Counted from the stretch's first letter, positions 502 through 18,726 are shown. The stretch: DNA of 19,743 nucleotides from Pseudomonadota bacterium (GCA_022360315.1 JAKSDA010000576.1:1-19743); one strand, 5' to 3'. Translations and numbers: made by a program. Notes: a model not told the origin generated them from the sequence alone.

Positions 502-1473
502 TTACCGGCTCAGGCTCACCACCCGACCATTGCGCGGCTGCAGCGGCCGGTTGTTGTTGCCATCGTTGCCGGCGTGTTTCAGCTGGCTCAGAGCGTTGCG
601 CAGGATATCTATCTGCTCGGTGGACAGTGTGAGTGGCTCGGAGTACACGAACCAGCGTACGCCTTCGCTGCACGGGGGAGTGGTCAGGGAGCCGTGATAG
701 CGAAAAGTCGTGCGGTCGCTGGGCAGCAGGCCGGAGGCGTCGATCTCCAGCTCGTCGAAGCGGTAGCTCACGCCCTCCTGCCGGGGCAAGATCTGCGCGA
801 GCGTGCGGTCACCGCCCAGCGAAGCCAGCTCGGCGTTCTCGTCGCCAGCTGTGACCAGGATCCCGACGACCGCGAGATCACCCCGCCGGTTGCGATGAAC
901 CAGGTGTAGCTCGAGGACCTGATGCTCGCCGACAAAGGTGTGCTCGCTCGGGGTGTGCCAGTGAAACTGCAACAGCTCGTAGCGCGTACCGGCGATTTTC
1001 AGCCAGCTGCCGGGCTCGTAGTTGAACTGCGCGGTGTGACCGTTATTGACCACGTCGACTGGTGTGGGTCGGTAGTGCAGCCTGAGTTTATCGAGGGTGG
1101 CCATGTCGGCCTGTCCAGGGTTCAGGTCGATCGGCGTCTGCGCCGCACCCTCGCCGCACAGGAACCACTCGGGCGACAGCTCCGCCCATAAGTCCGGGCC
1201 GACACCGTCTTCATAGCCGAATACCGGCCCCGGCTCGGCCGGCTCGAGGATGATCTCACCCACGGTCTCGGTGCCAGGTTCGCTGCGGTCGTCATCACCA
1301 TCGTCACCATCGTCATCATCGTCGTCACCGTCATGGTTGTCATTATGGTAGGTAGCGGCCGCGGCTGTGGCGGCGATGTCGTCGCCGCGGCTCGACTCGC
1401 GGTCGTCCAATCTGGCACAACCCGAGGTGGTGAGGAGGAGCAGGGCAAGGACAAGGTTCAGCTTGGAGTTCAT
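502..1473 (-). CDS. Alpha-class carbonic anhydrase, predicted lipoprotein, with an acidic poly-Asp/Gly linker after the lipobox
   Basis: The translation carries hallmark alpha-CA motifs: QTPIDL, LQFHWHTPSEHT, LAVVGILV and FRYHGSLTTPPCSEGVRWFV. The N-terminus MNSKLNLVLALLLLTTSGC is a signal peptide with a lipobox. The run DGDDDDDDGDDGDDD lies between the lipobox and the catalytic domain. Confidence 0.9.
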   Translation of the reverse strand: MNSKLNLVLALLLLTTSGCARLDDRESSRGDDIAATAAAATYHNDNHDGDDDDDDGDDGDDDRSEPGTETVGEIILEPAEPGPVFGYEDGVGPDLWAELSPEWFLCGEGAAQTPIDLNPGQADMATLDKLRLHYRPTPVDVVNNGHTAQFNYEPGSWLKIAGTRYELLQFHWHTPSEHTFVGEHQVLELHLVHRNRRGDLAVVGILVTAGDENAELASLGGDRTLAQILPRQEGVSYRFDELEIDASGLLPSDRTTFRYHGSLTTPPCSEGVRWFVYSEPLTLSTEQIDILRNALSQLKHAGNDGNNNRPLQPRNGRVVSLSR

Positions 1474-1672: not shown

Positions 1673-2359
1673 TCAGCTACCTGCTACTTCGATTTTGTAG
1701 CCGAAGCCGCGCACTGTATGAATCAGCCGGGTTTCGCGACCCTGGTCTATCTTTTTGCGCAGCTGGCGTATATAGACCTCGACCACATTGGTGAGCGGGT
1801 CGGTCTGATAGCCCCACACGGCCTCGAGAATGCGCGTGCGGCTGACCACGCGGCCGCTCGAGCTCATCAGAAACTCGAGCAGGGCAAACTCCCGCGGAGT
1901 GAGCTTGATGACCTCGCCGTCGCAGGTCACCTGGCGGATCTCGCGGTCGAGGGTGAGAGGCCCGATCTCAAATCGAGTCAAAGTCGGCCGGTAGTGCGGC
2001 GAGCGTCGCATCAGCGCCTCGATGCGGGCCAGCAGCTCCTCGAACGCGAACGGCTTGGTGAGATAGTCGTCGGCACCCAGGCGCAGGCCTTCGACCCGGT
2101 CCTCGACCGCGTCGCGTGCGGTGAGCATGAGGATAGGCGTGTCGATACCGCGTCCGCGCAGCCGCCGGCAGACCTCGCGTCCGTCCGTTGTCGGCAGCAT
2201 CAGATCGAGCAATATGACGCCGTAGCCGTCGTCGGAGCCGGCCTGGATGCCCTCTTCGCCATCGCTCACCACATCCACCCCGTAGCCCTCAGCTTCGAGG
2301 CCGCGCTTGACGAACGCAATGATGCGTTTGTCGTCCTCGATCAACAGGACGCGTTTCAT
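1673..2359 (-). CDS. OmpR/PhoB-family two-component response regulator (receiver plus winged-helix DNA-binding domain)
   Basis: MKRVLLIEDD...ILLDLMLP matches a receiver domain with the phospho-acceptor Asp. LTPREFALLEFLM...VSRTRILEAVWG...VRGFGYK matches the trans_reg_C winged helix. It overlaps the upstream kinase gene by 4 nt. Confidence 0.92.
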   Translation of the reverse strand: MKRVLLIEDDKRIIAFVKRGLEAEGYGVDVVSDGEEGIQAGSDDGYGVILLDLMLPTTDGREVCRRLRGRGIDTPILMLTARDAVEDRVEGLRLGADDYLTKPFAFEELLARIEALMRRSPHYRPTLTRFEIGPLTLDREIRQVTCDGEVIKLTPREFALLEFLMSSSGRVVSRTRILEAVWGYQTDPLTNVVEVYIRQLRKKIDQGRETRLIHTVRGFGYKIEVAGS

Positions 2360-3951
2360 GTGGTCACGTCCTCATCTGGCAGGTTGGGCAGGCGCAGGCA
2401 CACCCGCGTGCCCTGGCCCGGGCGGCTGTCGATGGTCAGCGTGCCGCCGTGGCGCTCGGCCAGCAGCTGGGCCACGGGCAGGCCCAGGCCGCTGCCCTCG
2501 GGCGCTCGTTTCTGCGCTGCGCGGCCGCGAAAAAAGTGGTCGAAGATGTGGGGCATCTCGTCGGCCGGAATTCCGTCTCCGTCATCGCGCACGCAGAGCT
2601 CGAGCTCATCGCTGTCGTCGGCGTGCAGGGAGAGCTCGATACGGCCGCCGTTGGGGGTGTAGCGACAGGCGTTGTCCAACAGGATCATGACCATCTGGCG
2701 TAGCCGCTGGCTGTCGCCCAGGACCATCGCGCCTTCGCTGGACACGTTCAGAACCAGGTCCTGGTGGCGCTGGGCAGCCAGCGCGGTCACGTCGGTGTGC
2801 AACCTGCGCAACAGCGGCGCTAGCTCGACCGGCTCGCGCTCGATCGGCAGGTCGGACGCCTCGCCGCGGGCCAACAGCAGCAGATCGTCGACCAGCTGTG
2901 CGGTGTGCTCGGCCTGATGGATGATGCGGTTGAGCGACTCGCGATACTCGTCCGCGTTGCTGTGGCGCGCGCGCAGCGTCACCTCCGCCTCGCCCCGGAT
3001 CACGGTGATCGGGGTGCGCAACTCGTGACCGAGCTCGGCCAGGAGCTGGCGGCGCCGTCTGTTCTCCGCCCCCAGCTGCGCGTTGGCCCGCTCGAGCGCA
3101 CGGGTGCGCGCGGCGACCTGGCTCTCCAGGCTGTGCTTGGTCTGAGTGACCTCGACCAGCTCGCGCTGGCTGCTCTCCATGCGTTCGGCCATACTGTTGA
3201 CCGCGTTGCCGAGCTGCGACAGCTCGGTCGGTTCGGAAATCTGCACCGGATGCGAGAAGTCCGAGCGCACGACCCGTGCGGTCGCCGCAAGCAGCTTATC
3301 GACCGGCGAGCCGATGCTCTCCGTCGCCCGCCAGGACAGGATCGTCGAGATGATGAACGTGCACAGCGCGATGACCATGGAACCGGCGAATACGAAGGTG
3401 TGCCAGAAGGCTTCACTTTCCAGGTTTATCGCGATGGCCCGACGTTCGCCGCTCACCGCTTCGTTGAACAGCTCGTGCAAGCGCCGCTTGGCATCCGAGC
3501 CGAGGACATCGGCGACCTGGGCCAGCGTGACCGGACGAGTCGCTTCCGCGTCGCCGCGGACCAGCGCGTCGAGCTGCGCATCGACGGCGGTGAACGCCTG
3601 CTCGATCGCATCGAGTTTGGCCCGTCGCTCGGTCATGTCAGCGGCCCCATCGCTGTCGAGTATGACCAGCTCACTGGCGCGAACAAAGGCGTTCTGGACC
3701 GCCGCGCGCGCGATATCGGGCGCGGTCGCCGCCCGGTCGTCGCCCAGCTGGCGCACGCGCGCGATCAAGTAGCGGTTGCGGGCCAGCGCCAGCTCGATGT
3801 ACGCCTCGAGGGTGTCGTGCTGCAGGTGGTCGCGATCCACGTGCGCCATTGCACGCCACGTGCCCATGGCCAACAGACCACCCACGAATGCCAGCACCGC
3901 GAGCGGTATGGACAGGGCGATGATCAGTTTGCTGCGCAGCGAGGTAGGCAA
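2356..3951 (-). CDS. Membrane sensor histidine kinase (two TM segments, periplasmic helical sensor, HAMP, HisKA, HATPase_c)
   Basis: There are N-terminal and mid-protein hydrophobic segments. The H-box is LGHELRTPITVIRGEAEV. The ATPase motifs are DDGDGIP...GSGLGLPVAQLLAERHGG. The 4-nt ATGA overlap with the response regulator indicates an operon. Confidence 0.9.
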   Translation of the reverse strand: MPTSLRSKLIIALSIPLAVLAFVGGLLAMGTWRAMAHVDRDHLQHDTLEAYIELALARNRYLIARVRQLGDDRAATAPDIARAAVQNAFVRASELVILDSDGAADMTERRAKLDAIEQAFTAVDAQLDALVRGDAEATRPVTLAQVADVLGSDAKRRLHELFNEAVSGERRAIAINLESEAFWHTFVFAGSMVIALCTFIISTILSWRATESIGSPVDKLLAATARVVRSDFSHPVQISEPTELSQLGNAVNSMAERMESSQRELVEVTQTKHSLESQVAARTRALERANAQLGAENRRRRQLLAELGHELRTPITVIRGEAEVTLRARHSNADEYRESLNRIIHQAEHTAQLVDDLLLLARGEASDLPIEREPVELAPLLRRLHTDVTALAAQRHQDLVLNVSSEGAMVLGDSQRLRQMVMILLDNACRYTPNGGRIELSLHADDSDELELCVRDDGDGIPADEMPHIFDHFFRGRAAQKRAPEGSGLGLPVAQLLAERHGGTLTIDSRPGQGTRVCLRLPNLPDEDVTT

Positions 3952-10180: not shown

Positions 10181-10343
10181 CGGCCCAGGATAATGCGCGC
10201 AACCTGTGGGTCAATGGCCGGTTGCCGATCGCGTCGCCCGCCATTCGATCGGCCGCTCATATGTGGGCGCGGCGCGTGGAGAAGAGAGGACCACTGGGTG
10301 TAGCATTGCCGCTCCCGGTCACAACACACGAGGAGTGCAGCGC

Positions 10344-13223
10344 ATGGCCGAACGCGGAAGCCGCAAGATCCCCGTCACGGATCGCCAATTTTTGTGGGTT
10401 CAAGACGACGACAAAGGCGAGGTGATCCTTCACGTCGGACCCACCATGGTGTCGCCGACCGCCGCTGATCGAGTGGTGATCGACGACGGCAACGGCGGGT
10501 TTCGAGAGGATCCCAGCGGGCAACCGCAGCGCATGGTCGAGCTGTCCGATGCGCAATACGCGGTGCTCTACAATCCACTGATCGAAAGCGAGGAGGAGGG
10601 CCCCAACGGCAAGTTCCGGCCCGGTCGCAACGAGTCGCGCGAACTGCGCAACGGGACCCGCAACATGATTCCAGGGCCGTGCAGCTTTTATCTGCGGCCG
10701 GGCCAGCGGGTCGAGATCCGCGACGCCCACGAACTGGCTTCCAATCAGTACCTCGTGGTCAAGGTCTACGGCGAGGTCGACGAGAACGCACCGTATTATG
10801 TAATTACTGCCAAATCGGCCACGATCACGACTGCCACGGCGGAGGAAGTGGCGGGCGGATCGGGCGGAAGCGAGATGAGCGAGGCCGAGATCGGCGATGT
10901 AAGCCTCACCCGGGGCCAGCTCATCGTGATTCGGGGGTTGGACACTCAGTTCTATATTCCGCCCACTGGAGTGGACGTGGTACCCGATCTGTCGGTCGAC
11001 AATCAGGGCAAGGTGCTGAACGCGGCTGCTGCGCGCCGGATCCTGTCGTCGATGCCAGCACCGGCCGCGGCCCTTCCGGTGCCACCGCCTCCGCCCACGG
11101 AGATATCGCCACAGGCCGTGGCCCCGCCGGGCCCGGCCGGTGCCTTGCCGCTCGAGCTGGCAGAGGCCGCCGAGGGCGCGGACAAAGAAGTGGACGAGGC
11201 GCGGCGCAAGCGCAGGCGAGAAAAGCCGATGCGCCAGGCCCGCTACGCCAAGGTCGAACAAGCGGCACGCGTCCGCCACCAGGCTCAGCGCCCTCCTCTT
11301 CAGCCCGAGCCAACCCCGTCCGGGGCCGGGCAGCCGCGCCTGTCCAGCGACGAGATCCAGCAGCTTCTGGCCAGTGATGTACACCGCCGCGCGCTCGAGC
11401 GCGAGGTCAGAAAAATGCGGTTGATCCGCCAGGCTGTGGTGCTCAGCGAAAAGGAGTTTTGCGTGATCATCGATGCCGACGGCAAGCGGCAGATCAAGCG
11501 CGGTCCGGCGCGGGTGTTTCCCGGGCCGTACGACTCGTTCATGACCAAGGGGTCGCGCGACCGCATTTACGATGCCTACGAGCTCTTGCCCCAGCGCGCC
11601 CTGTGGCTGCGTTTCATCGCACCGATCGCCCGCGACAAACTGGCCGCGCTCTTGCCGCGCGGGGTTCATCTGGACACGGAGGTGTATCAGCCGGGCGATG
11701 AATTCATTTTGACCGGGGTCAATTCGTTTTTCTTTCCGTTTAACGAGGTCGAGATTCTCCACCCACTCAACGGCCAGCCCCACGTCGGCAATGATCACTC
11801 CGAGATCTTCATCGAGGCTATCGGTATCGATCAGAAGAGCGGCATTTACGTGCGCGACCTGGCCACCGGGGAGGTTCGCACGGTGCGCGGCAAGCAGTCA
11901 TATCTGGTCGACCCCCGCAAAGAAGTCCATATTACCCGCACCATTTCGTCCGACGACTGGAATTTGTGGATCGCGCTCGGCGAGCCACACAAACTCACCG
12001 ACGAACCGGTGACCACGCCGTGGGCCATCTCGATCACGGTACCGCACAACAATGCAGTGCTGGCCACGTCGGCCGATGGCCAGCGAGTGATCGAGGGGCC
12101 GTGCGTCGAGCTGCTCGAGTACGAGGAGACGCTGGTGCCAATGGCTCTGTCCACCGGCCGGCCCAAGAGCGCGAGGCATCCATTGCGCACGTGCTTTTTG
12201 CGCACAGTGGGCAACCGGGTGTCCGACATGGTCACCCTGGAAACCGCCGATTTCGTCAAAGTAGATGCCGAGGTGAGTTACCAGGTCAACTTCGACCTGC
12301 AGTTCAAAGACCGCTGGTTCAATCACGAGAACTACGTCGGCGTGCTCTGCGATCACCTTCGTTCGCTGGTGCGAAGTCGAGCCCGCCAGATGGCTCTCAA
12401 CGAAATTTGGCCCAATATCTCGAGCGTCATTCGAGACGCGGTCCTCGGTGAAAAAACCGCGGAGGGCCGCCAGGGCCGACTATTTGACGAAAACGGCATG
12501 CGGGTCACCGAGGTCGAGGTACTCTCGTCCGAGATATTGGACAAAGAGATCGCCGTTTTGCTCGAAAGTGTGCAGCGCGAGTCAGTTGCCCTGGTCATCG
12601 GCGACCGCCAGATATCCGAGCAGTTGCGCTCGGAGAAGCTGCGCCACGACATCGAACGCGAGCGCCAGGAAATGAAACGCGAGGCCACGGAACGCAAGGC
12701 CTCGCTCGACGAGCTTTTGCGCAAGCTGACCCAGGAGGCCGGGCTGGCCGAGTTGCGCGGCAGGGAAGCGACCGAGCGCGAAGCTGCCGAGCTGGCCGCC
12801 GGCCGCGAGCAGATCATCCTGGACAGCACCTTGGCCCGGGAAAAGTCGCAAAACGACGCCCACATCGCCCGGCAACGCGATGCCACCACGGCCAAGGTCG
12901 ATATGAACCGTCTCGCCCACGAAGAGGAGCAGGCTTACCGGCAAGCTCTGACAAACATCGAGATGCAGCGCATCGAGGTGCAGAGCAAGGCCACTGTGGC
13001 CGAGCGGCAGGCGATTCAGCCCGCCCTGGTCGAGGCGCTCACTGCGCTGGGCGACAAGATCATGCTCGGTGAAGTGGCCAGGAACATGAACCTGGTCAGC
13101 CTGTTCAAGGGCAAAGACATCGCCCACATCTTCGCCGACGTGCTCGGCGGCACCAAGCTGGGTCGCACCATCGCGGCCCAGTTACCGAAAAAGCCCGACA
13201 ATGACGGGGGTGACGGTGTCTGA
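10344..13223 (+). CDS. Major vault protein (MVP) homologue: N-terminal MVP repeats, band-7/SPFH-like shoulder, cap-helix coiled coil, cap-ring tail; contains a Pro-rich/basic insertion
   Basis: ATG 10344 is preceded by GAGGAG. Several segments align by eye to human MVP: GIYVRDLATGEVRTVRG (MVP GIYVQDVKTGKVRAV-G), ISITVPHNNAVL (VSYRVPHNAAVQ), LSTGRPKSARHPLR (LSAGRPKRPHARR) and TLETADFVKVD (TIETADHARLQ). A ~200-aa E/R/K/Q-rich heptad region follows, and the C-terminus is ...LFKGKDIAHIFADVLGGTKLG. The N-terminus carries multiple ~50-aa beta-rich repeats (KIPVTDRQFLWVQDDDKGEVILHVGPTMV...). Confidence 0.88.
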   Translation: MAERGSRKIPVTDRQFLWVQDDDKGEVILHVGPTMVSPTAADRVVIDDGNGGFREDPSGQPQRMVELSDAQYAVLYNPLIESEEEGPNGKFRPGRNESRELRNGTRNMIPGPCSFYLRPGQRVEIRDAHELASNQYLVVKVYGEVDENAPYYVITAKSATITTATAEEVAGGSGGSEMSEAEIGDVSLTRGQLIVIRGLDTQFYIPPTGVDVVPDLSVDNQGKVLNAAAARRILSSMPAPAAALPVPPPPPTEISPQAVAPPGPAGALPLELAEAAEGADKEVDEARRKRRREKPMRQARYAKVEQAARVRHQAQRPPLQPEPTPSGAGQPRLSSDEIQQLLASDVHRRALEREVRKMRLIRQAVVLSEKEFCVIIDADGKRQIKRGPARVFPGPYDSFMTKGSRDRIYDAYELLPQRALWLRFIAPIARDKLAALLPRGVHLDTEVYQPGDEFILTGVNSFFFPFNEVEILHPLNGQPHVGNDHSEIFIEAIGIDQKSGIYVRDLATGEVRTVRGKQSYLVDPRKEVHITRTISSDDWNLWIALGEPHKLTDEPVTTPWAISITVPHNNAVLATSADGQRVIEGPCVELLEYEETLVPMALSTGRPKSARHPLRTCFLRTVGNRVSDMVTLETADFVKVDAEVSYQVNFDLQFKDRWFNHENYVGVLCDHLRSLVRSRARQMALNEIWPNISSVIRDAVLGEKTAEGRQGRLFDENGMRVTEVEVLSSEILDKEIAVLLESVQRESVALVIGDRQISEQLRSEKLRHDIERERQEMKREATERKASLDELLRKLTQEAGLAELRGREATEREAAELAAGREQIILDSTLAREKSQNDAHIARQRDATTAKVDMNRLAHEEEQAYRQALTNIEMQRIEVQSKATVAERQAIQPALVEALTALGDKIMLGEVARNMNLVSLFKGKDIAHIFADVLGGTKLGRTIAAQLPKKPDNDGGDGV

Positions 13224-14138: not shown

Positions 14139-15239
14139 TCAGGGCTGCTGAACAAAGCCGCGCACTTCGGGACCCCAGCTCGCCGGGTCGTTGGCCCAGC
14201 GCGGCGCGGTCCCGGGGGCGACCAGGACCGTGGAACCGAACACGGCAATCGACGGAAGATTGCTGGGTCCGGTGTCCGGGCGCAATTTGGTCACCGCGCC
14301 TGCCGGCAGCTCGATGACCTCGATGTTGTATTCGCTACTGTGGACGGGGCGGTCAAAGACGCGCAGCGCCACGAGGGCCCGCCGGCCCGGAACGCCGATG
14401 AGCTTCACCCCATCGTAGCCCTGGAATTTGACCATGGAGGCGCCGCCACCCGAGCGCGCGTCCACGAGCATCAGGCCACTGGGAGCATAAGCCGCGACGA
14501 TCGCCCCGTCACCAGTGACTCCGACGGCGAGCCGGTCAAGGAATCCGTGACCCGGTGTCCACGGGGTGCGCCAGCGCTCCTTCAGGGTGTTGCCATCGAT
14601 GGCGATGACGTGGCCCTTGGCCTCCTCCGGAGCGCTGCCCGGGGTCTCGCCCGAGAGAAAGAGCACGTCGTCGGTGGGACTGGCCGCAGCGGCGAAGCGA
14701 AAGATCTCCCGGTTGGACAGGGTACGGCTGGCCAGGACGCTTGGCGGGACTTTCGGGGCCAGGCTGACCAGCTCCAGGGTGAGGGACTTGCCCTCCTCGT
14801 GCAGCACCACGACCCGGTCGCGACTGGCCCCCAGCCGGTAGCCCCGCCAGCGGGCGTAATCGCCGCCGGCCGGTCCCAGGGGGATGGCCAGATCCGGGCG
14901 AGCGGTCGAGCGCAGCACCGGGTGGGTCAGGTCCTCAGCGGTCACGTAAGCCACCTCGCCGCTGTTGTCCGGGCCGGCGACCACGTTGCCGCGGGCGCGG
15001 GCCACCACCTCGCCGGTGGACCGCTCGATCACCTTGATCACTGGCGACATCCGGGGCTCGCCGACAAAGATCAACTCGGCCGCCAAAAAGCGCCCGTCGG
15101 GCGATGCCCACAGGCCGGCGGCCCCGCGGGCGGGCCCGTAGTCTGTCACCGCCAGGTCGAGTTTGGACATGGATGATTTGCCACTGCACGAGTGCGACCC
15201 ATAGGCCGCGACCAGTGCCATGGAGATGACGATAGGCAT
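14139..15239 (-). CDS. Secreted (possibly lipo-)protein, beta-rich, hypothetical; downstream partner of the DUF4157 giant gene
   Basis: The preferred start at 15239 gives MPIVISMALVAAYGSHSCSG, a signal peptide. The longer ORF starting at 15296 would overlap the upstream gene. The sequence has repeated beta-strand-like segments and I recognise no motif. It lies 46 nt downstream of the DUF4157 gene. Confidence 0.5.
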   Translation of the reverse strand: MPIVISMALVAAYGSHSCSGKSSMSKLDLAVTDYGPARGAAGLWASPDGRFLAAELIFVGEPRMSPVIKVIERSTGEVVARARGNVVAGPDNSGEVAYVTAEDLTHPVLRSTARPDLAIPLGPAGGDYARWRGYRLGASRDRVVVLHEEGKSLTLELVSLAPKVPPSVLASRTLSNREIFRFAAAASPTDDVLFLSGETPGSAPEEAKGHVIAIDGNTLKERWRTPWTPGHGFLDRLAVGVTGDGAIVAAYAPSGLMLVDARSGGGASMVKFQGYDGVKLIGVPGRRALVALRVFDRPVHSSEYNIEVIELPAGAVTKLRPDTGPSNLPSIAVFGSTVLVAPGTAPRWANDPASWGPEVRGFVQQP

Positions 15240-15285
15240 GAACGCGCCGCCAGATGATGCTCTGGCGGGGTTTGGAGCAGTGCTA

Positions 15286-18200
15286 CTACAGTCCATGTAT
15301 CTTCTTCAACGCGTCATAGCGGTCCTGGTGTAAACCGTCGAGATCCCAGTCGAGATTACCGACCTTTTTGATGATGGCCTTCACCTCGGATTTGTCGGCG
15401 CTCTCCAGGATGGACACGATGAGCTCCTGGGCATTGTCGCCGGTGCGCCCGCTGGCCATGCGCTCCACCCAGTGGATCTTGGTCGATTGGCTCATGACTC
15501 GAAAGTAGCCCTTGTCCTTGAGTACTCCGGTCATCTGCGCGCTCTCGGCGCCGTCGATCTTGGACCAAAATTGGCCATAACCGATGTTGTCGACAATGGA
15601 CTTGACATCGCCGTCGGCGCTCGATTCGACGATGCGGATAATGGCCGCTTCGTCGTCGTTGCCGCAGGATCCGTCCATGAGCGTCGTGATCCACTCTGTC
15701 TTGGTGGCCAGGTCCGCAGTCAGGTGCCGCTCCGCGTCCACGGCTGCGCGCACCCCGTCATCATCCATGCGCACCGCATCGAAGCGCTCCTGGTGCGAGC
15801 CGGTGAGATCCCAGTCGAGGCTGGTGCTGCCGACTTTGTCGACGATGGCCTTGGCCTCGGCCGGGCTGGAGCTCTCCAGGATGGCCATGATGAGCTCTTG
15901 GGCGTTGGTGTTGGTGCGCGCGCTGGACATGCGCTGTACCCAGTCGATCTTGGTCTCCAGACTCATGGAGCGAAAGTAGCCCTTGTCCTTGAGCACCCCG
16001 GTCATCTGCGCGCTCTCGGCGCCGTCGATCTTGGACCAGAATTTATCGTAGCCGATGCCGTCGACGATAGTCTTGACATCGCCGGGCAGGCTCGACTGGA
16101 TGATGCGGATGATGGCCGCCTCGTCGTCGTCGCCGCAGGATCCGGCCATGAGCGTGGTGATCCACGCCTGCTTTTGCTCCGAATTCAGGTCGATGTGCTC
16201 GCTCAGGGCGACCGCGGCGCGCACTCCGTTGTCGTCCATGTGGGCAGACGTCTCGGGGCTCTTGCTCAGGACCTTGCTGCACAGGGTGTTCCACTCGGCG
16301 CCGTCGATGCCCGAGTCGAGGTAGTCGATGCCCTTGGCGACGTCGCCATTGCCCAGTTGTTTGACGATGGTGACCATGTTGGGGACCGTGGCCGTGTCGA
16401 GCATCTCGATGATCGCCCGCTCCTCGTCGTCGGCGCACGAGCCAGACACGAGAAACTGGATGGCCTTGTGCCTCTGCTCGGTGGTCAGGGTGGCCAGGGC
16501 TCCCTCGGCCCGGGCCTTCCTGTAGTATTCCATGGCGTTGTCGTCGGCGTTGATATTCTCCGCTCGTTGTGGTTCAGCGTCCGGGTCTTGGTTACCAGCG
16601 TGGACGGGCTCGCGGGTGTCGGGGACGTAGTTGATGACTGCTTCAAACGTGGTAATGACTTTGCTCTGGTCGCCCTTGAGGAGGGCAAGCACACCTTTCT
16701 TTAGCGCCTCGTCCTTGTACTCCTCATCCATCTGTATCTCTTTGCCGAGCTCGTCCGCCTTGTTGTTGGCGAATACGCGCAGAGCTTCTCTCATCGTGCC
16801 GTCTCGGAGCAGCTCATCGACGGTCTCCCGTTGCCACTTGGGAGTCTCGGCCTGGCCCGGTGCGCTATCTGGCAGCGCCTTGGGCCACAATTGCTCGGCG
16901 CGAAATAGGCCGTCTGACAGGTTGAGAGCCGCCACCACAGCGTCGGGATCCTGGCCGGCCTTGCCCATGGCATGGGCGTCGTGAATGTCTTTGAGGCTCA
17001 CCTTGACCGCCGCCGCCGCCAGCTTGCCCGTCTCTATTCCACGGGTCTTGGGGGCGTCATTTTTGTCGAGTACCTCGCCGTCACCAAATAGCTTGACGAT
17101 CTGGTCGCCCACCTGCACGTCGACCCCGGTTTGGTTGTCCATGTCGTGGACCGCGCCGGAGATGACGTTGCCAAACGTCAAATTGGGTATGCCCTTATCT
17201 TGGAGCGTCTTCGCGATTGTCGTGCGCCCCTCGCGCCACATATAGTTAACTGTGACCAAGTCACCGCGCCAGTTATTCTCGTCGATATACCTGGCGATCC
17301 GCTCGGCCATCCACCAGTGCAAGTTGGTCCAGAACATGGGCACCCGCTCGTTCCACCAGTGTTCGATGGACACCCGCTCGGTGCGCACGTGTCCACCCGA
17401 ATAGGCGTCGGTGAGGAAGTGACTGGCAAAGGCCTCGTGGAGCAGAGCTCTGTCTCTGCGGTCACCCGACTTGCCGGCCTCGGCGGCGGCCTTGATGGCA
17501 TCGATGTGGTTTTTCCGGTAGCTGCCCGCGTTGTTGACCGGCTCTCCTGCCTTGTCCCGCTTGTTGGCCCGTTGCTCGTGGGTCAGCGCATCGTCGCCGC
17601 GCTCGGAGTTGGTGAAGTGGGTCGGGTTGAACGAGGCCATCTCGTAATAGCGCTTCTTGACGGTCCTGCGCAGGTCGGCGCCAAACGACTCCTCCTCGTC
17701 CTCGTGGCCCTGCACCTCGACCCGCAGTACATAGAGGATTTCGTCTCGGGTGCCGGGACAGTTCTTGCCGTCGCCCGGCTTGCCGGCGAGCTCCTCGATC
17801 TGGGCGACGCTCTTGAAGTAGTCGCCGGCCGTGGCGGTGATGTCGCCAAAGCTGACCTCAAAGCCCGGGCTCAGCTCGATCTTGGCGTTTCCCGACCCCG
17901 CATCGCCCATCTTCTTGTGCTCGTTGGACTCGAACCGCTGGATGACGGCCTTCTTTTGCGTGGCCGAGCCGCCTGACTGCAGCCCTGATGTGGGGGCGCC
18001 CGCGGCCGACTGGGCGCCCGCCCCCTTGCCCTGGGCCGCCCTGGCACCCATCTGGTCCGCCTCTCGCTCCAGAGAGGCGTCGTCGTTGACCGCCACTCCA
18101 TCGACCTGGGTGGTCACCGCGACCCTGCCCTGGCTCTGCTGTACCACGTGAGCCAATTCGTGGCCGAGAAGCTCCTGTCCCGCCGGGCTGTGGGGCTGAT

Positions 18201-18726
18201 ACTGTCCGGGGGCAAAGTGCACATCCGCGCCCTGAGTGTACGCTTGGGCGCCGATGGCCGGGGCGTGTGGCCCCTGGTGAACGCGTACTGCGGAAAAGTC
18301 GGCGGCAAACGCGGCCTCCATCTTGGCTTGGACGTCGGCCGGCAGTTTACTACCCGTTCCACCTGTTGAGGCAGGTGAATCCGGTCGCTCTGCGGGCTCT
18401 ACGGTTTTTCTCTTAGCCTGAATGGGCCCGTAGTACGGAGGTGCCGAGGTGCCGATTTCGTCATAACTAGCTCGTAATAAAGGGCTTTGGTAAAGGCCGG
18501 GACGCAACGCCACGTCGGTCCAATCTTCAATCAAGCCCGTCCCATGATGCGTCGGTGATTGCGCCCCCGATGATTGCTTGCGTTGCACCGGTGCAAAAAG
18601 ACGAGCCTCTGGAAGAGGCAGCTTGCTCGTCAATGTCCTCTTCCCCTGGGCAACTGAATGTCGCGAGGCTCCTACGCCTATGTCGTGTGTCGTGCGCGCA
18701 TGCTTGTCGTGACGGTGACGTGTCAT
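15286..18726 (-). CDS. Large multidomain protein: N-terminal DUF4157 (eCIS/polymorphic-toxin-associated zincin-like HExxH domain), central domain of unknown function, C-terminal tandem ~150-aa repeats
   Basis: [49 protein letters not shown]...[15 protein letters not shown] followed by [13 protein letters not shown] is the DUF4157 signature. There is no signal peptide. Two C-terminal repeats each contain WITTLM(A/D)GSCG(D/N)DDEAAIIRI...VK(T/S)IVD.IGY...[24 protein letters not shown]. Confidence 0.85.
15289..16230. repeat. Intragenic tandem direct repeat, two copies of ~461-471 bp with >85% identity (runs of ~60 identical bp), plus a shorter degenerate third copy upstream (~16230-16560)
   Basis: The same DNA blocks recur at roughly 15341/15805, 15511/15972 and 15662/16133. 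They encode the two near-identical C-terminal protein repeats of the DUF4157 protein. Boundaries are approximate. Confidence 0.8.

Follow-up and report, generated by a model that had tools for sequence, protein, structure and literature searches.

The window analysed here, a stretch of 19,743 nucleotides (nt) from a Pseudomonadota bacterium (GCA_022360315.1, JAKSDA010000576.1:1-19743), carries on its plus strand a gene for a protein of 959 amino acids (aa) that is, as judged from its sequence and predicted structure, a bacterial protein homologous to the major vault protein (MVP). After its third N-terminal repeat the protein bears an insertion of about 145 residues (aa 217-361, nt 10992-11426), whose disordered core (aa 237-334, nt 11052-11345) surrounds a short conserved linear motif. 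Bacterial MVP homologues had been noted previously (Daly 2013, PMC3762200; Sokolskyi 2019, bioRxiv 10.1101/872010), so the insertion is a new feature on a known kind of protein; it is mentioned nowhere in the literature that we searched, and the same literature held no experimental report of bacterial MVP particles. The gene and its parts, with residues numbered on the 959-aa protein and local confidence of the AlphaFold2 (AF2) models given as the predicted local distance difference test (pLDDT), are as follows.

10344..13223, plus strand: coding sequence of the MVP homologue, 959 aa and a stop codon, from homologue starts, Pfam and matches to MVP chains of the PDB
10362..10991, plus strand: three N-terminal MVP repeats (aa 7-216, rat R1-R3), from hhalign, MAFFT, AF2 and Foldseek; they end in FYIPPTGVDVVPD
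10992..11051, plus strand: N-terminal base of the insertion (aa 217-236), SVDNQGKVLNAAAARRILSS; conserved, with an AF2 helix at 227-235
11052..11150, plus strand: Pro/Ala spacer 1 (aa 237-269), MPAPAAALPVPPPPPTEISPQAVAPPGPAGALP; variable in length and sequence, 23% Pro and 24% Ala in the family, pLDDT <50
11151..11201, plus strand: acidic block (aa 270-286), LELAEAAEGADKEVDEA; 35% Asp/Glu in the family, 0-35 aa long
11202..11249, plus strand: basic cluster (aa 287-302), RRKRRREKPMRQARYA; the Arg/Lys pair at 299-300 is kept in ~70% of the family
11250..11291, plus strand: conserved linear motif (aa 303-316), KVEQAARVRHQAQR; pattern [VI][DE]Q[SA]ARxR[QHG][RQA][VK]
11292..11345, plus strand: Pro/Ala spacer 2 (aa 317-334), PPLQPEPTPSGAGQPRLS; variable, 11-46 aa, 28% Pro and 26% Ala in the family, pLDDT <50
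11346..11426, plus strand: C-terminal base of the insertion (aa 335-361), SDEIQQLLASDVHRRALEREVRKMRLI; two conserved helices
11427..12212, plus strand: four further MVP repeats (aa 362-623, rat R6-R9), from phmmer, weak Pfam matches and hhalign
12213..12542, plus strand: SPFH-like shoulder domain (aa 624-733), from PF11978 and Foldseek; pLDDT >90
12543..13220, plus strand: cap helix and C-terminal region (aa 734-959), from AF2 and the alignment to the rat cap helix

A bacterial MVP homologue with seven repeats

The gene lies in an open frame of 1005 codons (nt 10206-13223, plus strand). All homologues start with MxERTSRKIPV, and the real start is therefore the ATG at 10344; the GTG at 10206 was rejected, as the 46-codon extension that it would add (10206-10343) is backed by no homologue. 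Gene callers that take the longest open reading frame (ORF) would place the N-terminus wrongly in this part of the window. Translation of nt 10206-13223 contains verbatim the segment quoted in the initial annotation, whose interval, nt 11030-11400, corresponds to aa 230-352 of the protein. The other five frames of nt 10992-11426 hold stops or nothing resembling any MVP. A frameshift or mistranslation of this GC-rich gene was ruled out by 116 homologues in frame and by codon-level purifying selection on the motif. A tandem DNA duplication was also rejected as the origin of the insertion: just a 27-nt GC-rich pseudo-repeat was detected.

The protein had been called an MVP homologue from its sequence, and profile, pairwise and structural searches all agree with this. 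Pfam recognised the shoulder domain (MVP_shoulder, PF11978) at aa 624-733 with E 2.1e-23 and 83 bits, against a cutoff of 25; Vault_3 (27.6 bits, cutoff 28.8) and Vault_4 (20.5 bits, cutoff 22.9) remained slightly below threshold. A phmmer search of PDB chains matched rat, human and rabbit MVP at E ~1e-24, with query residues 365-906 on rat 274-817. The rat reference sequence used throughout was checked against PDB 7PKZ_A, with which 860 of 861 residues agreed, and the one mismatch was corrected. When the alignment of the whole family was compared with rat MVP by hhalign, the match extended over aa 7-940, spanning R1-R9, with a probability of 99.8%.

When AF2 was given only close homologues, the N-terminal half was modelled poorly (pLDDT ~50); a second model, built from a diverse alignment of 148 sequences, reached a mean pLDDT of 75, with N-terminal repeats that are mostly beta and score 85-92. 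Foldseek searches with this second model retrieved MVP structures over their full length (E 1e-32), as well as 3GF5 and 3GNF, crystals of murine R1-R7 (E 4e-11, template modelling score 0.5); the SPFH cages of flotillin, prohibitin and HflK/C ranked after the MVP structures. A continuous helix is predicted at aa 734-888, and phmmer aligned this region up to rat residue 817. The order of beta-repeats, SPFH-like shoulder and long cap helix is thus the same as in eukaryotic MVP (4V60, 7PKZ, 9BW5, 9Z4W). The repeat count differs: the window protein has seven, three before the insertion and four after it, against nine in eukaryotic MVP, and where the latter has R4-R5 it carries the 145-aa insertion with its helical base and disordered loop. 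The seven-repeat state is normal for bacterial and phage MVP homologues. Unlike eukaryotic MVP, the window protein is not known to stand in any vPARP, TEP1 or vault RNA context. A second, small variable loop was seen within the third repeat (aa 171-185, nt 10854-10898, GGSGGSEMSEAEIGD); its column conservation is ~0.2 with 31% gaps, and pLDDT falls below 50 at aa 167-176.

A true insertion at the junction after the third repeat

The segment had been proposed to be an insertion between repeat domains, without a counterpart in eukaryotic MVP. We used profile hidden Markov models of the two flanks as anchors, namely aa 186-216 (RGQLIVIRGLDTQFYIPPTGVDVVPD, ending FYIPPTGVDVVPD) and aa 362-400 (starting RQAVVLSEKEFCVIID), and measured the spacing between them in 150 cluster representatives from an exhaustive search with 1019 hits. 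This distance is 145 aa in the window protein, whereas homologues of the plain form, which lack the insertion, have 5 aa between the anchors. The spacing was 4-10 aa, with a mode of 5, in ~100 of the ~125 full-length distant homologues, two phage proteins included. A second, independent alignment of 40 insert-bearing and 108 plain proteins gave a spacing of exactly 5 aa in 103 of the 108 plain rows, and aa 219-358 were the sole large family-specific segment in it. The segment is thus a true insertion.

The position of the insertion relative to eukaryotic MVP was obtained from hhalign and from MAFFT L-INS-i, which gave the same result. FYIPPTGVDVV, at the end of the third repeat, aligns with rat TYIPQKEVEVV (150-160), followed in rat by EIIQ164, and the sequence from aa 363 onward aligns with rat 273 onward, where R6 starts. 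The insertion thus occupies the inter-repeat junction that follows the third repeat. Rat and human MVP have two additional repeats at this place, R4-R5 (rat 165-272, 108 aa), and hhalign sets the segment opposite them with no signal, in agreement with the proposed lack of a detectable eukaryotic counterpart. As the ends of rat R3, R4 and R5 are similar, the junction could equally be named R3|R4 or R5|R6.

A disordered loop on a conserved helical base

The low complexity noted in the initial annotation, a Pro-rich part followed by an Arg/Lys cluster, is borne out by composition. Pro and Ala make up 20% and 19% of residues 237-335, compared with 4.4% and 8.6% of the remaining protein (binomial p = 1e-8 for Pro and 5e-11 for Pro and Ala together), and 13 Lys or Arg fall within the 31 residues of aa 286-316 (p = 5e-5). 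The suggested disorder is likewise predicted: the core has a pLDDT of 29-47 and no secondary structure in both AF2 models.

Among 117 sequences of the family, the loop measures 52-120 aa; it is never shorter than 52 aa and was never lost. Its residues 237-334 are variable, with column entropies of 2.5-3.7 bits and many gaps, whereas the flanks are highly conserved. The order of its parts is kept throughout the family: Pro/Ala spacer, acidic block, basic block, motif, Pro/Ala spacer. On the N-terminal side, A230 of the base is invariant and S217, D219, G222, A227 and L234 are at least 90% conserved; this base is not present in plain-family homologues. The C-terminal base is predicted by AF2 as two helices, 335-343 and 345-360, at pLDDT 75-81, which continue into the first strand of the next repeat. 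In it R359 and L360, together with the adjoining R362, are invariant, and R348, A350, E352 and R356 are at least 90% conserved.

A constrained motif inside the loop

None of the 117 sequences departs from Q306, R309 or R311, and A308 is kept in 92% of them; the narrow motif pattern is present in 116 of the 117 proteins. Among 49 genome loci the narrow motif was found in 46 and QxxRxR in two more, that is, in 48 of 49. The motif is still present in representatives of just 53-59% identity. We computed the ratio of nonsynonymous to synonymous substitution rates (dN/dS), pooled from six close gene pairs among the fetched loci, and counted alignment columns with indels for each region.

R1-R3: dN/dS 0.06, 1 indel column
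N-terminal base: dN/dS 0.07, 0 indel columns
N-side loop: dN/dS 0.45, 25 indel columns
Motif: dN/dS 0.04, 0 indel columns
C-side loop: dN/dS 0.30, 14 indel columns
C-terminal base: dN/dS 0.11, 0 indel columns
R4-R7: dN/dS 0.05, 0 indel columns
Shoulder: dN/dS 0.07, 0 indel columns

The motif is thus a short constrained island inside indel-rich disordered sequence (0.04 against 0.30-0.45, with 39 indel columns), as is characteristic of short linear motifs. By these values the loop is a fast-evolving tether bearing one element that is constrained like the folded core. They also bear on two earlier proposals, that the segment could be a disordered linker tolerated by the fold and that variation among close relatives would mark it as neutral. 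The disorder stands, and so does the variability, since both length and sequence vary (dN/dS 0.30-0.45, with indels). Neutrality does not hold for the embedded motif of 12-14 aa, with its three invariant positions and its dN/dS of 0.04. With this motif embedded in it, the insertion is not a neutral linker; nor is it a plain basic tail, the net charge of the loop being close to neutral over the family.

A segregated charge pattern

The net charge of aa 289-316 has a family median of +5 and ranges from +2 to +9; the window protein holds the maximum, +9. Its RRKRRREK cluster is a family extreme and atypically strong. For aa 255-288 the median over the family is -5. Taken whole, the loop carries a net negative charge in 87 of the 117 sequences, with a median of -1, the loop of the window protein being at +4. 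Since the loop is mostly net negative and the cluster of the window protein is extreme, generic electrostatic binding of nucleic acid is probably not what is conserved. What is conserved appears instead to be the segregated acidic-then-basic pattern together with a precise Q-x-A-R-x-R, not bulk positive charge. Such a pattern agrees with a segment that specifically recognises a protein surface, or one particular RNA in the manner of arginine-rich motifs; it fits non-specific packaging of polyanions less well.

Distribution of the insertion and plasticity of the junction

The term bacterial-specific, used for the segment in the initial annotation, proved too broad: the plain form occurs in many phyla, including other Myxococcota, without the insertion, which marks one Myxococcota sub-family of the Polyangia type. 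The 120 closest database proteins are all insert-bearing, with 57-100% identity and mostly 910-980 aa. They come from Polyangium species, Polyangiaceae, Byssovorax, Minicystis rosea, Nannocystaceae and unclassified Myxococcota; a few insert-bearing metagenome-assembled genomes (MAGs) carry the labels Planctomycetota or Thermoanaerobaculia. The closest genome match to the window is 68% identical. Side observations within this family concern gene copies. The Myxococcota MAG BF4_93 has two loci (L013 and L054), each with a near full-length match to an insert-family MVP, which suggests that it holds insert-family paralogues. In a 368-aa representative (P0261) the junction consists of Arg/Pro/Gly-rich nonsense (...GRGRAAAPGPARAAAEPQPVPAHAGGGRAG...), after which the family sequence resumes; this looks like a frameshifted or misassembled copy of an insert-family gene.

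The plain form (~810-900 aa) is far commoner, with 3251 hits in Spirochaetia, Riflebacteria, Gemmatimonadaceae, Microscillaceae, other Bacteroidia, Melainabacteria, Desulfococcaceae and Ca. Venteria, and also in Polyangiaceae, Nannocystis (both as MAGs) and other Myxococcales. This kind of protein was described by Sokolskyi 2019 (bioRxiv 10.1101/872010). Full-length MVP homologues without the insertion are also encoded by two huge uncultured phage genomes of 462 kb and 735 kb: one of 827 aa (L003, 553-3036 of LR756500.1) and one of 809 aa (L004, 559-2988 of LR756501.1), with an identical match in LR756503.1. The phage proteins are 28-31% identical to the window protein. Taken together, plain bacterial and phage homologues share the seven-repeat, shoulder and cap-helix architecture with the window protein at 28-34% identity.

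In other clades the same junction carries material of other kinds. Three representatives (P0122, P0125 and P0126) have charged, low-complexity inserts of 250-426 aa, in which the motif is absent and both base helices and the acidic and basic tracts are kept. One of these, 326 aa long, is a PspA/IM30-like coiled coil (E 2e-11). P0130, P0141 and P0161 carry non-Pro inserts of 123-151 aa with the first base helix in common; a helical-looking module of ~100-120 aa was found in P0132 to P0156 and P0189, and one to three extra repeat copies in P0164, P0165 and P0173. The junction after the third repeat is thus an insertion hot spot in bacterial MVP homologues. Since it takes such varied inserts, the site must face open space.

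A second site also distinguishes the two forms. Between W542 and A561 (aa 543-560, nt 11970-12026) the insert family has exactly 18 aa, in 40 of 40 rows, where the loop of the plain family is charged and varies from 69 to 138 aa. Rat and human MVP have their disordered R8 loop (429-449; PMC13347060) at this site, and in the window family it is reduced to this fixed length. The plain form thus combines a junction of 5 aa with a long R8 loop, and the window protein a junction of 145 aa with a short one. No sequence relation between the junction insertion and the plain-family R8 loop was found by hhalign (probability 0.1%).

A putative docking motif on a tether

In the explanation that we favour, the insertion presents a docking motif, tethered by Pro/Ala spacers and probably lumenal, to which a specific partner would be recruited. 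We give this reading a probability of about one half; we are confident of the anatomy and much less so of the function, which we infer. The two conserved helical segments (aa 217-236 and 335-361) would form a base on the shell wall, and the stiff Pro/Ala spacers would act as tethers keeping the motif some tens of angstroms off it. The motif itself may be the docking peptide for a specific partner, either a cargo protein, an RNA or another polyanion, and the acidic block may balance or mask the adjoining basic block. If the assembly is MVP-like, the arms would encircle each half-shell in a single ring, at one constant latitude close to its waist. They most likely point into the lumen.

The proposed orientation draws on the human vault. 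By cryo-electron microscopy, PARP4 in the human vault is reported to bind through its MINT domain to the lumenal face along repeats 3-4, with contacts to MVP residues Q164, R169 and D214 (PMC12280208). In rat these are the residues of EIIQ164, ATVIK169 and LD214LV, at inter-repeat junctions, and S217 of the window protein, the first inserted residue, aligns with rat Q164 in both hhalign and MAFFT. If the repeats are stacked in the same orientation, their linkers would all be lumenal and the insertion would emerge on that side. By this analogy, we estimate the chance that the insertion lies on the lumenal face at roughly two in three.

Several points weigh against a lumenal docking motif. The orientation uses the human contact map through an alignment of 26% identity, plus the assumption that linkers share one face, and an MVP-like closed shell is only presumed for the window protein. 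The motif docks nowhere in the AF2 monomer models. The loop is nearly neutral or slightly negative in most members, which argues against simple binding of polyanions. One locus (L068) and the three representatives with large inserts lack the motif, which is thus dispensable to the fold. Finally, genomic context points to no partner: in the other related loci that were fetched, none of the seven window neighbours adjoins the MVP gene, and any further gene family stands beside MVP in at most 13 of those loci.

The same conserved peptide could serve the shell itself. It might bind a neighbouring MVP subunit, by an added beta-strand or by salt bridges to an acidic patch, and so act as a strap between subunits that stabilises or regulates assembly or opening; we regard this as unlikely. 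The conserved residues alternate on both faces of an extended peptide (V304, Q306 and A308 on one, D305, R309 and R311 on the other), which would suit a peptide buried in a groove or at the edge of a sheet, and self-interaction would be economical given that no conserved partner gene was found in the loci fetched. R1-R3 of the sub-family are moreover unusually conserved (dN/dS 0.06) and contain acidic runs such as WVQDDDK. However, the DDD patch in R1 is kept in L068, P0122 and P0126, all of which lack the motif, so that patch and motif do not co-vary; plain-family and phage homologues apparently manage without such a strap, and AF2 predicts no intramolecular docking. A passive role, in which a permissive site has gathered disordered sequence, perhaps as an entropic bristle, and the motif is kept for a trivial reason such as capping the base helices, appears improbable to us. 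The unrelated inserts at this junction in other clades, the absence of the insert from most homologues and the indels, variable length (52-120 aa) and dN/dS of 0.30-0.45 of the loop would all be expected of it. It accounts poorly for three invariant residues and a dN/dS of 0.04 at mid-loop, where 11-46 residues separate them from the closest base helix, for the conserved order of acidic and basic blocks, and for a loop that no member of the family has lost.

We also considered that the insertion is the remnant of a folded module, whether of repeats R4-R5, of a helical domain like PDCD5 (PF01984) or of a transposed R8 loop. This is largely refuted and we consider it very improbable. The R4-R5 version is suggested by the 108 aa of eukaryotic MVP that stand exactly opposite the insertion; yet aa 217-360 and rat 165-272 gave no hhalign signal, and AF2 predicts helices and coil with no strands. 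Transposition of the R8 loop would explain why the 69-138-aa loop of the plain family is missing from the window family, but the two are related at an hhalign probability of just 0.1%. The likeness to PDCD5 is more specific. Human PDCD5 is the best PDB match of the insertion profile (E 0.13), with VLDQSARARL on the motif and KVSEQGLIEIL on LSxDExQxLL, and the same Ser/Ala and Asp/Glu substitutions are tolerated in PDCD5 orthologues, as seen in a comparison alignment of vertebrate sequences only. The match is nevertheless confined to the motif and its probability stays at 9-14%: 8.8% over 22 columns with a single sequence and 13.5% over 11 columns with 98 sequences. The exact six-residue pattern DQSARxR is expected about once by chance in the PDB, by our own rough calculation, and no Pfam family was matched by more than two of 30 insert sequences, PF01984 being matched by one (E 0.26). 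PDCD5 (also TFAR19), in which residues 45-55 of the human protein share V-L-[DE]-Q-[SA]-A-R-A-R with the family motif, holds this pattern inside a helical bundle, whereas the family motif lies in a disordered loop. We therefore ascribe the likeness to coincidence or convergence rather than to homology. A resemblance to PDCD5, seen by eye, of the ~110-aa helical inserts from another clade was not supported either: their best profile match was FokI (E 0.037), and no Pfam family recurred.

A wider extension of the docking-motif reading, which is speculative and in our estimate rather improbable, would make the junction after the third repeat an ancient cargo port. Eukaryotes would then have expanded this junction into R3-R5, with the dock for MINT on their lumenal face, and the Myxococcota sub-family would have built the recruiting element into the shell protein, as tethered arginine-rich arms set in a ring and loading one specific cargo, RNA or protein. 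If this were true, the shells of the sub-family would be self-sufficient bacterial ribonucleoprotein vaults, and their content could be identified by a single-peptide pull-down. If the loop is a passive linker, the finding would be a mere lineage-specific decoration.

Comparison with other shells and tethers

Short arginine-rich arms are known from virus capsids, namely the C-terminal domain of the hepatitis B virus core protein and the N-terminal arms of nodaviruses and bromoviruses, and arginine-rich motifs bind RNA in lambda N and in Rev of the human immunodeficiency virus. The insertion resembles capsid arms as a short disordered Arg-rich segment on a presumed shell protein. Unlike them, it is an internal loop tethered at both ends and preceded by an acidic block, and it conserves a precise Q-x-A-R-x-R rather than charge. 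In the E2 chains of 2-oxo-acid dehydrogenases, extended and semi-rigid Ala/Pro-rich linkers tether a folded lipoyl domain. The two systems have in common Pro/Ala-rich stretches of 20-30 residues around a functional element (Pro and Ala make up ~47-54% here); the tethered element of the insertion is, by contrast, a linear motif of ~14 aa.

The function of vaults has been an open question since their discovery, and the near-invariant 14-residue peptide may give a concrete handle on what bacterial vault-like shells bind. The position of the insertion matches that where human vaults dock their main internal enzyme. It is the same place on the wall as the docking site of the PARP4 MINT domain on MVP repeats 3-4, by positional analogy only: MINT is a folded cargo domain on a folded wall, whereas here the wall itself would carry a flexible peptide. 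The junction is plastic: depending on the lineage it is empty or carries extra repeats, helical modules, disordered arms or a PspA-like coiled coil. For the engineering of vault nanoparticles it suggests an internal site that tolerates large insertions.

Genomic context

The MVP gene stands alone. Its neighbours in the window encode an amidohydrolase, an isochorismatase, a protein with an eCIS_core (DUF4157) domain, a spermidine synthase, a two-component pair and a carbonic anhydrase. A conserved operon partner or cargo gene was sought and rejected, as no neighbour or partner family recurs across the related loci fetched. An anti-phage defence context was also rejected, with no PADLOC match for the MVP gene or for three neighbouring genes.

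Among the neighbours, a 1146-aa protein encoded at 15286-18726 (minus strand) has its eCIS_core domain (PF13699/DUF4157) near the N-terminus (E 4e-28). On its stop-proximal side, with an overlap of 11 nt, lies a 385-aa ORF with no Pfam match (14139-15296, minus strand); PADLOC matched neither of the two. Near the other end of the window, 502-1473 (minus strand) encodes a carbonic anhydrase of the eukaryotic (alpha) type (PF00194, E 3e-41), which adjoins the pair of histidine kinase and response regulator at 1673-3951 (minus strand).

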